From a phage, in NCBI GenBank assembly GCA_021683455.1, contig GCA_021683455.1_3051.2: 32,167 nucleotides of DNA. One strand, written 5' to 3'. Both the position numbers and the translations under genes were made by a program. Below are positions 2,897 through 24,017 of the stretch, one piece after another (within the stretch, counting starts at the first letter, position 1; the number at the start of each line of letters is the position of its first letter). The notes under the pieces were generated by a model. It was not told the DNA's origin and did not search any database. It saw only the letters and a list, made by a program, of their open reading frames with translations.

Positions 2897-3381
2897 TTTT
2901 AAAAACTCGCTGGTATGATTTAGATGATGGGGATGATGGCATTTCAGTTAATAGAGTTGACTGGAATGGTTGTTCCGAAGATATGAAAAATTTGTTGATT
3001 AGGGAGTTTAGAATGGGATATCAAGCAGCTAAGCCATCTATTATAACAGATGATAAGTTCGTGTGTATTCATAATGGTCGCGCTAAGTTAACGAACGCTG
3101 ATTGGTTCACAGATAAAATTATGATTCTGTGGTATATTATTAGTCTTCCTGTGACATCATTTGTATTTTGCTTCTTTGGTGAAAGTCCAATAGGCAGAAC
3201 AGGAGATTGGATTCTTTTAATTATGCTTGTTAATATTTTGACAGCAGCAATATTATCAGGAATGTGGTGCGTGTTCATTGAAATGCCATGGCGTTTACGC
3301 AGACAGCAAAAGATTTTTGATGAAAAGAAATACGCTCAAAATTTAAATAGCTTTATCACTGAATGCAGGAAATTAAAATGA
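2893..3381 (+). CDS. membrane protein (e.2-position ORF)
   Basis: ATGA overlap with upstream stop; soluble N-terminal part then two hydrophobic helices; tail ends FITECRKLK. Confidence 0.6.
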   Translation: MILKTRWYDLDDGDDGISVNRVDWNGCSEDMKNLLIREFRMGYQAAKPSIITDDKFVCIHNGRAKLTNADWFTDKIMILWYIISLPVTSFVFCFFGESPIGRTGDWILLIMLVNILTAAILSGMWCVFIEMPWRLRRQQKIFDEKKYAQNLNSFITECRKLK

Positions 3382-3818
3382 AAACACTATCAACTGGTAT
3401 TATCTTTATGACAGAAGATAAAGATTTATTTATGGGTCGGGTTACTGGTTCTCGTAAGCCTGGAATGATGGCACATCGCTGGGATATTCCAAAGGGCCGT
3501 GTAGAAAATTCCGATTTAAGCGCATTAGATGCAGCACGAAGAGAATGTTTAGAAGAGACTGGTTTTAGCAATTATAATCCAGACCTTCTAGAAGACCTAG
3601 GTGTATTTAAATATTCTAGTAATAAAGACTTACAGTTATTTTATTATACGATTCCAGTAGAGCATGAGATGTTCAGAAATTGCCATTGCGAGTCTTATTT
3701 TGAAAATAAAGATGGCGTTATGATTCCAGAGATGGACGCTTTTGCTCTTATTCCTCGTACTCAGTGGCAATATGTGATGGGTCCTTCACTTTACCGAATA
3801 ATGAACAACCTCTTTTAA
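3378..3818 (+). CDS. nudE: Nudix hydrolase
   Basis: Nudix box GRVENSDLSALDAARRECLEETGF; ATG 3378 has AGGAA 7 nt upstream and overlaps upstream stop; position next to e as T4 e.1/nudE. Confidence 0.8.
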   Translation: MKTLSTGIIFMTEDKDLFMGRVTGSRKPGMMAHRWDIPKGRVENSDLSALDAARRECLEETGFSNYNPDLLEDLGVFKYSSNKDLQLFYYTIPVEHEMFRNCHCESYFENKDGVMIPEMDAFALIPRTQWQYVMGPSLYRIMNNLF

Positions 3819-4349
<531 letters not shown>

Positions 4350-4353
4350 AGTT

Positions 4354-4384
4354 GTTTACTTTCTCCTAGAATTGTGATAGTATA
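4354..4384 (+). promoter_or_regulatory. early promoter-like element upstream of ip gene (GTTTAC 4354-4359; TAGTAT-like -10)
   Basis: Sequence pattern only. Confidence 0.4.
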
Positions 4385-4437
4385 TTCACAGTTGCTTGAA
4401 GAGACAAATTACTAATTAAAATATTTAAAGGAAACAC

Positions 4438-4707
4438 ATGAAAACATATCAAGAATTTATCACTGAAGCAGCTATTAATTCTCAAATTATTGCTGAATCT
4501 TTTACTGATCTTTTGAAATTTAAAAAAGGTCAAAAAATCACTGCTGTATTGGATGATGGTACAGAAGTTGAGATGGATGTACAGGGATATAATTATGCAG
4601 TAGATGGAAAACTGTATAATAAATCTCATGCTAAATTTGATTCATTTGACGACTTTGTTAATACAGTTGAAGATGAAAAAAACTCGTCGATCCATTGTAA
4701 CTGGTGA
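4438..4707 (+). CDS. internal head protein (IPII/IPIII-like) with capsid-targeting sequence
   Basis: N-terminus MKTYQEFITEA matches the conserved capsid-targeting sequence of T4 internal proteins; AAAGGAAA SD; T4 has ipIII/ipII at this position. Confidence 0.65.
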   Translation: MKTYQEFITEAAINSQIIAESFTDLLKFKKGQKITAVLDDGTEVEMDVQGYNYAVDGKLYNKSHAKFDSFDDFVNTVEDEKNSSIHCNW

Positions 4708-4912
4708 TGCTAAGGTTCTTATGGCACATGGTCATGAACGCATTCGCGCTAAACAGAATAAAATGGGTGAAGATAATTTTGCATTAGTTGGTTATCAATC
4801 TGGTAAACAAACCTATGGTTATCAGCGTACTGCTACCATGTATAATAAAAATGGTAAAATTGCCTTTGTAAATAGTAAAGGTTCTATTCAGTACGTTAAA
4901 TCGTTCAAATAA
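4673..4912 (+). CDS. basic 79-aa ORF overlapping the ip 3' end; separate gene or frameshifted continuation of the ip gene
   Basis: ATG 4673 in +1 frame relative to 4438 ORF, across an A7 run (4676-4682); no capsid-targeting sequence of its own; weak SD. Confidence 0.35.
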   Translation: MKKTRRSIVTGDAKVLMAHGHERIRAKQNKMGEDNFALVGYQSGKQTYGYQRTATMYNKNGKIAFVNSKGSIQYVKSFK

Positions 4913-5049
4913 TATGGGAACAGCCTGGACCTCATTTGAGGTATTCTCGCCAACCTGTGATAAGGTCGAGCCAAAGCGCGGTAATGGGTAATGCAGGAAT
5001 GGACAACTCATGTGCCATGGAATGGCCCAAAAACCTTAAGAGAAATAAT

Positions 5050-5592
5050 ATGAGAACATTTTTAACTGGCCCGTATCTATCCCTGATGAATGCTTTTACA
5101 CACCATTCTGATGCTAGAGTAGAAGAACTTTGTAAGAATGATTATCTTCCACCAATGGAAGATGTGCTCAAACAGTACTGCACACTTCGTATAGATGGTG
5201 GACGTCAATCCGGTAAATCAATTGCTGTGACTAACTTTGCCGCTAATTGGCTGTATGATGGCGGAACAGTTATTGTTCTTTCTAATACTTCAGCTTACGC
5301 TAAAATTTCTGCTGGCAACATTGAAAAAGAATTTTCTCGTTATTCTAGCGATGATATTCGATTCCGTTTATTTACTGATTCTGTCCGTAGTTTTATCGGT
5401 AATGAAGGTCATAAATTCCGTGGGTTATCGCTTTCTCGTATCTTGTACATAATTGACGAACCTATTAAAGCTCCTGATATGGATAAGATTTACAATATCC
5501 ATATTAAAACGGTACAACATTGTTGTCGAAGCTATAATGCTGAAACAGGTGAAACAGTTCGTCCTCAATTTTTTGTGATTGGAATGCAATGA
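5050..5592 (+). CDS. P-loop NTPase-like protein (vs.8-position ORF)
   Basis: Walker A-like GGRQSGKS and Walker B-like ILYIIDEP; start uncertain, frame open upstream to TTG 4936 through a GC-richer segment. Confidence 0.5.
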   Translation: MRTFLTGPYLSLMNAFTHHSDARVEELCKNDYLPPMEDVLKQYCTLRIDGGRQSGKSIAVTNFAANWLYDGGTVIVLSNTSAYAKISAGNIEKEFSRYSSDDIRFRLFTDSVRSFIGNEGHKFRGLSLSRILYIIDEPIKAPDMDKIYNIHIKTVQHCCRSYNAETGETVRPQFFVIGMQ

Positions 5593-5918
5593 TGACAGAC
5601 ACACAGCTTTTCGAATATCTCTATTTTTCGCCAAAAACTATTAAAAATAAATTGGTAAATCATTTTGAAATTTTGGCAAATAATAATATTTTAAGCGAAT
5701 TTTATCCCAAACAATACAAATTACAAAAAGGCGTATTCAAAGGATGCAGAGTTTTATGTACTGCTCCTAATGCACGGCTAATGAATAAAATTCCATATTT
5801 TACCATGGAATTTATTGATGGACCTTTTAAAGGACTAATCACGCAGAGTTTAATGGCATATGATTCTGAGCCGTTTTTAATTAAAGAACAATCTTGGATA
5901 AATTTATTTTCTAATTGA
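5589..5918 (+). CDS. hypothetical protein (vs.7-position ORF)
   Basis: ATGA overlap with upstream stop; 109 aa. Confidence 0.5.
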
Positions 5919-5925
5919 GGTTTAT

Positions 5926-6288
5926 ATGAAAGCATATCAAATTCTTGAAGGCACACATAAAGGCACTATTTATTTTGAAGATGGTATTCAAGCACGAATT
6001 ATTGTCTCTAAAACCTTTAAAGAGGACTCTTTTGTAGACCCAGAAATTTTCTACGGTTTGCATGCCCGTGAAATTGAAATTGAAACACAACCTACAGTTA
6101 AAATTGAAGGTGGTCAACACCTGAACGTTAACGTTCTGCGTCGTGAAACTCTGGAAGATGCAGTTAAGCATCCGGAAAAATATCCGCAGCTGACCATCCG
6201 TGTATCCGGTTATGCAGTTCGCTTTAACTCTCTGACTCCGGAACAGCAGCGCGACGTTATCGCTCGTACCTTCACCGAGAGTTTGTAA
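5926..6288 (+). CDS. autonomous glycyl-radical cofactor, GrcA/YfiD-like (T4 Y06I-type)
   Basis: C-terminal ~60 aa ([59 protein letters not shown]) matches E. coli GrcA C-terminus including glycyl-radical motif RVSGYAV; GAGGT SD. Confidence 0.85.
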
Positions 6289-6509
6289 TGGCAAAGATAA
6301 TTATTGAAGGTTCTGAAGATGTGCTAAATGCTTTCGCCGAGTGGTTTAGTAATTCAGGCGAACAGCAATTTAATGAAGCCTGGAATATGGGTGATATTGA
6401 TGGAATTTATCCTACGACAGAAATTTCTGTTCAAGGATATGGCATTCATGAACCTATTCGTTTAGTTGAATATGATTTATGTACTGGTGAGGAAGTCAAA
6501 TATGATTGA
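6288..6509 (+). CDS. hypothetical acidic protein (vs.5-position ORF)
   Basis: 73-aa ORF; start overlaps upstream stop (TAATG). Confidence 0.5.
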   Translation: MAKIIIEGSEDVLNAFAEWFSNSGEQQFNEAWNMGDIDGIYPTTEISVQGYGIHEPIRLVEYDLCTGEEVKYD

Positions 6510-23543: not shown

Positions 23544-24017
23544 ATGTTATTGACTGGCAAATTATATAAAGAAGAAAAACAGAAATTTTATGATGCACAA
23601 AACGGTAAATGCTTAATTTGCCAACGAGAACTAAATCCTGATGTTCAAGCTAATCACCTTGACCATGACCATGAATTAAATGGACCAAAAGCAGGAAAGG
23701 TACGTGGATTGCTTTGTAATCTCTGTAATGCCGCAGAAGGTCAAATGAAGCATAAATTTAATCGTTCTGGCTTAAAGGGACAAGGTGTTGATTATCTTGA
23801 ATGGTTAGAAAATTTACTTACTTATTTAAAATCCGATTACACCCAAAATAATATTCACCCTAACTTTGTTGGAGATAAATCAAAGGAATTTTCTCGTTTA
23901 GGAAAAGAGGAAATGATGGCCGAGATGCTTCAAAGAGGATTTGAATATAATGAATCTGACACTAAAACACAATTAATAGCTTCATTTAAGAAGCAGCTTA
24001 GAAAGAGTTTAAAATGA
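23544..24017 (+). CDS. 49: recombination endonuclease VII (Holliday-junction resolvase)
   Basis: 157 aa; N-terminal Cys cluster CLICQ...HLDHDHELNG...CNLCN; matches T4 gp49 as I recall it. Confidence 0.9.
   Translation: MLLTGKLYKEEKQKFYDAQNGKCLICQRELNPDVQANHLDHDHELNGPKAGKVRGLLCNLCNAAEGQMKHKFNRSGLKGQGVDYLEWLENLLTYLKSDYTQNNIHPNFVGDKSKEFSRLGKEEMMAEMLQRGFEYNESDTKTQLIASFKKQLRKSLK

Follow-up and report, generated by a model that had tools for sequence, protein, structure and literature searches.

A candidate class of structured phage RNA, present in T4 and alongside tRNA genes in other phages

The 32,167-nucleotide (nt) stretch of phage DNA analysed here (GenBank assembly GCA_021683455.1, contig GCA_021683455.1_3051.2; referred to throughout as the window) contains, between an internal head protein (ip) gene and vs.8, a 137-nt gap at positions 4913–5049 that is GC-richer than its surroundings, as a sequence-only reading of the same DNA had remarked. 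Its GC content is 46.7% against a window mean of 34.3%, and 0.56% of 137-nt intervals reach that value. From comparative sequence analysis we conclude, with high confidence, that this gap holds a non-coding, strand-specific structured RNA that is under strong selection. The element lies on the + strand at 4916–5028 and consists of a core module (4916–4997) followed by a 3' extension specific to T4-like phages; its length across the family is approximately 95–115 nt. What might be taken for a GC-rich leader is better regarded as a candidate for a new class of phage structured RNA, one that is present in T4 itself. We came across no account of it in the literature that we searched, which does not prove that none exists; according to a 2010 review, T4 had yielded no functionally characterised riboswitch or trans-acting small RNA (PMC3014915).

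Covariance modelling provides the main evidence for the fold. The model, designated R1, was built from 29 T4-like sequences and contains nested helices only. It gives a sole match in the window, at 4915–5009 on the + strand (E 1.8e-15), and one match in the whole genome of Escherichia phage KIT03. The structure statistics were taken from the R1 alignment of 61 matches, using a chosen set of 59 loci with 59 distinct sequences. Standard base pairs occupy 87.5% of the alignment cells compared with 73.9% in shuffled alignments, none of the 500 shuffles reaching the observed value, and sliding the pairing partners reduces the figure to 25–44%. Changes on both sides are seen in 19 of the 30 pairs, and RNAalifold independently predicts three of the helices described below (P1, P3 and P4). 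Within the nested helices G.U combinations outnumber A.C combinations by 33 to 10, which fits an RNA made from the + strand.

The outermost helix, P1, pairs GGGAA at 4916–4920 with UUCUC at 4944–4948; all five of its pairs covary (A-U, G-C, U-A and C-G are all seen) and 93.7% of cells are paired. It encloses a variable, peripheral hairpin, P1a (ACCUC-AUUU-GAGGU, 4929–4942), which is a hairpin of differing length and sequence in all of the T4-like members and is replaced by 7 unpaired nt in members resembling Pseudomonas phage PsgM04F. A three-way junction follows, closed by P2, in which CCA at 4950–4952 pairs with UGG at 4985–4987; three of its four pairs covary, with variants such as CCCU/AGGG, CUGGU/GCCAG and ACU/AGU. 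The first arm of the junction, P3 (ACCU-GUGAUA-AGGU, 4953–4966, loop consensus GURAHA), is the most conserved part of the element, being paired in 100% of cells with an A-U to G-C change in 4 sequences, and the part of the sequence that contains it is 92–97% identical in rV5-like and Pseudomonas phages. The second arm, P4 (CGAGCC-AAA-G(C)GCGG, 4967–4981), is paired in 97% of cells and variants such as GCG-CAA-CGC and GAGAC-CGC-GUCUC retain the stem. Between P4 and the 3' strand of P2 lies the junction UAA (4982–4984), part of a GGUAA that is near-invariant in the family. The 3' extension at 4998–5028, found only in T4-like phages, carries AUGGA and GGA motifs. It includes a candidate hairpin, GCCAU-GGA-AUGGC at 5014–5026, which the variants GGCAU/AUGCC and GACAU/AUGUC keep, although for this part of the fold (P5/P6) a competing alternative hairpin fits most sequences equally well.

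A pseudoknot that is absent from R1 provides further insight into the architecture. It is formed by CCUG at 4924–4927, inside the P1 loop, pairing with CAGG at 4994–4997, and so joins a stretch just after the 5' strand of P1 to a stretch a few nt past the 3' strand of P2. Approximately 30 distinct complementary strand combinations are found across the family. Besides the CCUG/CAGG of the window they include CUCGA/UCGAG, GCCGA/UCGGU, ACCA/UGGU, ACAC/GUGU, CGGA/UCCG, CCAA/UUGG, CCGAA/UUCGG and, in rV5-like phages, CCAG/CUGG. Cognate duplexes average -5.84 kcal/mol compared with -3.99 kcal/mol for permuted partners, a difference reached in 0 of 20000 permutations, and five of the five pseudoknot pairs covary even when clades of different linker length are not re-registered.

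The element is widely distributed among phages. A blastn search with 4905–5055 matched 924 phage records, and homologous elements were collected at more than 90 loci besides the window, the members from uncultured phages having been added by pattern scans of IMG/VR and metagenomes. Most of the T4-like (Tevenvirinae) phages examined carry one copy per genome, and copies are also present in rV5-like, PsgM04F-like and uncultured phages. In T4, RB51 and KIT03 and in six further genera of Tevenvirinae it occupies the same neighbourhood, preceded by either denV or ip; in Jiaodavirus, Kanagawavirus, Gaprivervirus, Tegunavirus, Moonvirus and others it sits in an equivalent gap of 140–220 nt. In T4 the part that is matched by the model lies at NC_000866.4 64838–64939 (complement), with the 3' extension running about 20 nt further downstream, and the first base of the element is the last base of the denV stop codon. 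In some T4-like phages the gene that follows is an ip gene instead of vs.8, and two loci that contain vs.8 lack the element. Some Kanagawavirus-like phages have two tandem copies, as in PEi20 (locus L028 of our collection, 1140–1262 and 1275–1375) and at loci L042, L055 and L071; the first copy is without the 3' extension, and in the second the P3 and P4 sequences have diverged while keeping their pairs. Outside the T4-like group, a 40-nt core (4949–4989) is 92–97% identical in rV5-like Vequintavirus and in PsgM04F, where it falls in unannotated DNA beside tRNA genes.

None of the catalogued RNA families that we searched accounts for the element. The 4227 models of Rfam 15, among them those for tRNA, transfer-messenger RNA (tmRNA), riboswitches and ribozymes, give no match overlapping 4913–5049 at E<=10, none at gathering score in five element-bearing phage loci, and none at E<=1 over the elements of loci L124, L110, L004, L187 and L152; ARAGORN finds no tRNA or tmRNA in the window. 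As to mimicry of a host sequence, a blastn search of 5,426 E. coli genomes gave no match to the segment. We also considered mimicry of helix 44 of the 23S rRNA GTPase centre, whose hexaloop we take to be GUAAUA, or of the 16S 530 loop (GCGGUAA); no rRNA model matches the element, and the resemblance is probably due to chance. A scan of 185,579 bacterial and archaeal genomes with an 18-mer core pattern, which covers part of the variants in the family, returned 11 hits and no true member. These hits are chance matches in coding DNA except on four archaeal contigs from metagenome-assembled genomes (Woesearchaeota, Nanoarchaeota, Methanosarcinales and one unclassified; L018 at 6608, and L020 at 1643, L023 at 3022 and L024 at 788, these three on the minus strand). 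Common to the four contigs is a conserved unit around CUGUCAUAAGGUCGAGCC that looks non-coding and has a GUCGA/UCGAC hairpin; the phage RNA model does not recognise it.

The reference annotation of T4 suggests a quite different explanation, namely that vs.8 is longer at its N-terminus and the segment codes for the extra part. The T4 gene is annotated there as 660 nt (NC_000866.4 64253–64912; L003 2754–3413, minus strand), which reaches 117 nt further upstream than the short form annotated in RB51 and KIT03 and covers most of the RNA element, and in the window the vs.8 frame is likewise open for 150 nt upstream of the ATG at 5050, with a TTG at 4936. However, in the 41 vs.8 loci compared the upstream frame closes after 0–135 nt, mostly within 75 nt, so that no protein is conserved over the extension. 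When homologs from five genera are aligned, the conserved N-terminus, M(K/R)xxLTxPYLxLMxAF, is seen to begin at the downstream ATG; this and the closing of the upstream frame mark the segment as non-coding. The substitutions within it preserve base pairs, not codons, and the same sequence is found far from any vs.8 homolog in the unannotated DNA of rV5-like and other phages. We therefore consider a coding extension highly improbable. The alignment places the true start of vs.8 at ATG 5050, and the consequence for annotation is that the T4 start is set 117 nt too far upstream.

The sequence-only reading had drawn attention to the open reading frame (ORF) at 5050–5592 (+ strand, 180 amino acids) for its Walker A-like and Walker B-like motifs, GGRQSGKS and ILYIIDEP. 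These motifs are well supported, as homologs from other genera have an invariant GRQ.GK and a conserved (I/V)I(D/E)EP in which E-P is invariant. The same reading had put this P-loop ORF in the place of denV, which does not hold. The ORF matches phrog_1488 over residues 3–180 (E 3.2e-78) and its position between ip and vs.7 is that of the annotated vs.8 in KIT03, RB51 and T4, so that by homology and synteny it is an ordinary T4 vs.8 ortholog. That reading had itself allowed that the ORF might simply be vs.8 behind an ordinary leader; the first half of this was correct and the second was not, as the segment in front is a deeply conserved, pseudoknotted RNA. Against Pfam and PDB, the Vs.8 protein shows weak, sub-threshold similarity to P-loop ATPases, as well as to the ATPase of gp17, the terminase that packages T4 DNA. 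As a functional partner of the RNA it was rejected, because there is no vs.8 homolog near the element in the non-T4 phages.

A further possibility is that the segment is a feature of the DNA only, such as a denV remnant, a recombination scar or functionless foreign GC-rich DNA. It lies in the hypervariable ip/denV region and its composition is unlike that of its flanks, and the sequence-only reading had noted the absence of a denV-like ORF at this point, with the segment and the P-loop ORF standing there instead. The absence itself is real: tblastn with T4 DenV detects no denV homolog in the 32-kb window and nothing between e (3855–4349) and the vs genes. The sole DenV-like match in the window is one of 49 amino acids with 41% identity (E 2e-4) at 23856–24002, which falls in the C-terminal part of the gene 49 / endonuclease VII ORF at 23544–24017. 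The complete KIT03 genome likewise has no annotated denV, and tblastn gives just the similarity to the gene 49 C-terminus, so that a natural lack of denV, as that reading supposed, is borne out by both the window and this complete genome. The link to the segment is not. RB51, wV7 and related phages align to the window by megablast in two pieces with about 400 nt extra between them, and alignment with the e-denV-Ip4 region of RB51, the nearest relative that has denV, locates the denV deletion scar at 4395–4431 (+ strand), in the spacer between e and ip and not at 4913–5049. At approximately 4395–4411 the e-denV spacer is kept as far as the degenerate ribosome-binding site and start codon of denV, and this is fused to the last ~15 nt of denV, extending to about 4431 just ahead of the ip start; the window reads cttgaagagacaaatta where RB51 has cttggagggataaaATGa, and then ...aaatatttaaaggaaacacATG, which is the denV 3' end of RB51. 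Moreover, when the segment is aligned to T4 in search of a denV remnant, T4 proves to have the segment itself, next to an intact denV. The same is true of PEi20, and RB51, which is also denV-positive, has the segment too; both the segment and the vs.8 ORF thus occur in phages that have denV, T4 included, and stand in for nothing. Conservation over Tevenvirinae genera, the compensatory pair changes, the excess of G.U over A.C and the lack of any E. coli match also argue against a feature of the DNA only, an explanation that is already contradicted and to which we give almost no credence. The loss of denV is an ordinary presence/absence polymorphism of a known type, for which the scar is located here; neither it nor the vs.8 ORF is novel in kind.

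Outside the T4-like phages, scans for tRNA genes place such genes on the same strand within 1.7 kb of the element at approximately 20 of the 27 loci. At L124 the element begins 5 nt past a tRNA-Ser gene and is followed by an intrinsic terminator; at L187 it comes just after a unit resembling a tRNA (3587–3669, called ambiguously by ARAGORN), and at L163 and in PsgM04F it lies within a tRNA array. In the rV5-like locus L141 a promoter (TTGACA-17-TATACT) is situated about 55 nt upstream of the element and a second promoter, for the next gene, comes after it. In PsgM04F-like phages the element is flanked by the same complementary repeat arms that flank the neighbouring tRNA-like units; these arms, AGTGCTCTTATCGTTGTG and CACAACAGGTAAGAGCATT, are found at L110 (1929–2330) and L005 (2382–2649) and also at L085, L093, L115, L123, L155 and L183, and look like processing or punctuation stems.

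Some other sequences close to the element were also noted. In rV5-like phages it is closely preceded by a motif, UAGAGGGCUUGAUAGUGC (L141 1–80; L004 ~2420–2460), and L141 has a second copy, UAGAGGGACUUGAAAGUGC, downstream at ~160–200; these copies may be processing or binding sites. In the window, a sigma-70-like site (TTATCA-16-TATAAT, 10 of 12 matches) is present at 4819–4846 within the 3' end of ip, approximately 70 nt upstream of the element, and could give the element its own transcript in phages that carry Ip4. Separately, L124 (IMGVR_UViG_3300042010_000030) contains at 3351–3396, 24 nt after a phage tRNA-Pro, a near-perfect copy of helix 43 of 23S rRNA, the L11/thiostrepton loop (GGCUUAGAAGCAGCCAUCCUUUAAAGAG). 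This is the sole instance among the 188 sequences examined, and it may be an rRNA-fragment mimic within a phage tRNA array.

Because the element is found beside tRNA genes and among varying neighbours as a unit of its own, equipped with a promoter, a terminator or punctuating repeats, the likeliest explanation is a small phage RNA that stands alone and acts in trans, a proposal to which we would give an even chance. Tentatively, we would go further and suggest that it represents an undescribed class of phage small RNA, carried within tRNA operons by many large virulent phages, that may work on a conserved host target as a decoy for, or an inhibitor of, some factor in translation, tRNA processing or defence, or else a new ribozyme class that has the fold of the hepatitis delta virus (HDV) ribozyme with a different active site. 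In the fold established above, P1 encloses the variable hairpin and P2 closes a three-way junction on the near-invariant P3 and P4 with the UAA junction. The pseudoknot, P1 and P2 hold in place a junction made up of the GURAHA loop of P3, P4 and the UAA, and compensatory changes maintain all of these helices. In the model that we favour, the element would be transcribed along with the neighbouring same-strand genes in T4-like phages, and as a separate gene within tRNA operons in the other phages. The junction surface of this discrete small RNA could then bind a conserved partner, plausibly a defence factor or a component of the apparatus by which the host carries out translation or tRNA processing.

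Several observations weigh against this proposal. With respect to the fold, single-sequence structure prediction of 4905–5055, a check that the sequence-only reading had put forward, finds it no more stable than shuffles (z = 0.07), which can be understood if the structure is pseudoknotted and hence invisible to that approach. The nested-helix alignment was fitted to R1, a bias that the controls reduce and do not remove; as the sequences are related, the shuffle-based counts overstate their independence; and the T4-type pseudoknot is short (3–4 bp), that of T4 itself being just 3 bp. With respect to function, the classical stable RNAs of T4 map, to our knowledge, only to the tRNA cluster. The remaining points all favour instead a cis-regulatory leader in T4-like phages, either riboswitch-like or a protein-binding operator, that acts on the downstream vs.8 or ip and perhaps on the whole vs.8–vs.3 cluster. 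In these phages the element always ends 20–35 nt ahead of a start codon, the extra 3' extension with its GGA (Shine-Dalgarno-like) motifs would suit a cis-acting leader, and the tandem arrangement of the Kanagawavirus-like phages is typical of riboswitches. A three-way junction with a pseudoknot is a common aptamer architecture, and the terminator right after the module at L124 could be an expression platform. However, the gene downstream varies, being vs.8, ip, phrog_3330, tRNAs or nothing before a terminator; the rV5-like phages have a promoter between the element and the next gene; and the ribosome-binding site of vs.8 showed no conserved pairing with the element. The failure of the single core-pattern scan to find a true bacterial or archaeal member would be unusual for a metabolite sensor, although this is weak evidence since the pattern covers only part of the variants in the family. 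On balance a leader function seems unlikely, if well short of negligible.

A well-defined RNA candidate, with strong comparative support for a complex pseudoknotted fold, is thus identified within the reference genome of T4, one of the best-studied phages. The same RNA is common to rV5-like, Pseudomonas and many uncultured phages, moving with tRNA genes there while being experimentally accessible in T4. It could expose a means, new to phage biology, of acting on the RNA or the translation machinery of the host.

The genes around the element in the window form a + strand run in T4-like order: nudE (3363–3818), e (3855–4349), ip (4438–4912), the 137-nt gap, vs.8 (5050–5592), vs.7 (5589–5918) and vs.6/grcA (5926–6288). 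The nearest record is KIT03, with 99% identity over 4350–5650 and about 96% over most of the window, and by sequence the source is a T4-like phage of the genus Tequatrovirus, from a lineage naturally without denV. The gene order in T4 is e-ipIII-ipII-denV-vs.8 and that in RB51 is e-denV-Ip4-vs.8, while the window has e, one gene with an N-terminal capsid-targeting sequence (CTS), and vs.8; KIT03 and about 28 further phages in the database, at >=99% identity, share this denV-less e-ip-vs.8 layout with the window. The single CTS-bearing gene had been recognised from the sequence alone, and it is the internal head protein gene at 4438–4912 (+ strand; CTS MKTYQEFITEA), an ortholog of Ip4. Its frame is broken by one extra A in the run at 4676–4682, the gene being 475 nt with A7 in the window and an intact 474 nt with A6 in KIT03 and RB51, and the extra A splits it into ORFs at 4438–4707 and 4604–4912. 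A homopolymer sequencing error could explain the frameshift, as could a real pseudogene or slippage. A second GC-rich island of the region, reaching 52% GC, spans ~6100–6340, from the 3' half of vs.6/grcA into the beginning of the ORF that follows. The glycyl-radical C-terminus of the GrcA-like protein is encoded here, and the base composition resembles that of a host.

Comparison with known RNA systems gives partial likenesses. The element resembles riboswitch aptamers in its covarying three-way junction and pseudoknot, in having conserved junctions and loops with variable peripheral stems, in its occasional tandem copies and in its position before a start codon in T4-like phages. It differs from them in that the set of features downstream is incoherent (vs.8, ip, phrog_3330 behind its own promoter, tRNAs, a terminator), in that it often lies outside a 5' untranslated region, and in that it was not found in the one bacterial and archaeal genome scan. 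With T4 stable RNAs C and D (species 1 and 2) it shares the character of a small structured phage RNA that is linked, outside the T4-like phages, to tRNA operons. There is no similarity to them in sequence or structure, and the T4 element is about 6 kb away from them, between denV and vs.8. R1 has no match in the tRNA-rnaC-rnaD region of T4 (L008), and on this ground kinship with rnaC or rnaD was rejected.

In topology the element resembles the HDV-like ribozymes, which include the tRNA-associated 'theta' ribozymes of phages (PMC10879173). This raises the possibility that the element is a new self-cleaving or RNA-processing ribozyme class with an HDV-like nested double pseudoknot, which would cut at or near its own 5' end to free the 3' end of an upstream mRNA or tRNA. 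As in HDV-like ribozymes, two covarying helices, P1 (4916–4920/4944–4948) and the pseudoknot (4924–4927/4994–4997), are interleaved with a hairpin between them and a junction domain inserted before the 3' strand of the pseudoknot. The order P1(5')-PK(5')-hairpin-P1(3')-junction domain-linker-PK(3'), where PK is the pseudoknot, is equivalent to P1-P2-P3-P1-P4-J4/2-P2 in those ribozymes. The size is small and broadly comparable, the location next to phage tRNA genes is shared, and the upstream gene or tRNA is followed immediately by the element, P1 beginning 1–5 nt past the stop codon or the tRNA 3' end.

The signatures of catalysis are, however, absent. In theta ribozymes the first position of J4/2 is a catalytic C whose change to U is inactivating (PMC10879173), whereas the equivalent linker here (UUUACAU, UUACAAU, UAAAUA, UUUAAUU or UU) starts with U in most members and has no conserved C anywhere. 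The first P1 pair is G-C, A-U or U-A and not G.U. The hairpin between the 5' strand of the pseudoknot and the 3' strand of P1, equivalent to P3/L3, varies from 0 to ~35 nt, has no conserved L3 and is absent in PsgM04F-like members, and with only 0–3 nt between the 3' strand of P1 and the 5' strand of P2 there is no room for a P1.1. The invariant nucleotides lie in the three-way junction, at the position of the P4 domain that is dispensable in HDV-like ribozymes, and no HDV or other ribozyme model in Rfam gives a match. Thus, although the topology fits, the element should not be filed among the HDV-like ribozymes, and a new ribozyme of this fold seems to us improbable.

Finally, T-even early mRNAs are known to carry pseudoknotted translational operators, such as the gene 32 leader pseudoknot (PMC3014915, PMC535899). 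Like these, the element is a conserved RNA with a pseudoknot that directly precedes a T4 gene. Unlike the T-even leader operators, it has no cognate repressor that we know of. It differs from them also in that the gene downstream varies and that, in unrelated phages, it is found as a free-standing unit that has a promoter or terminator to itself.

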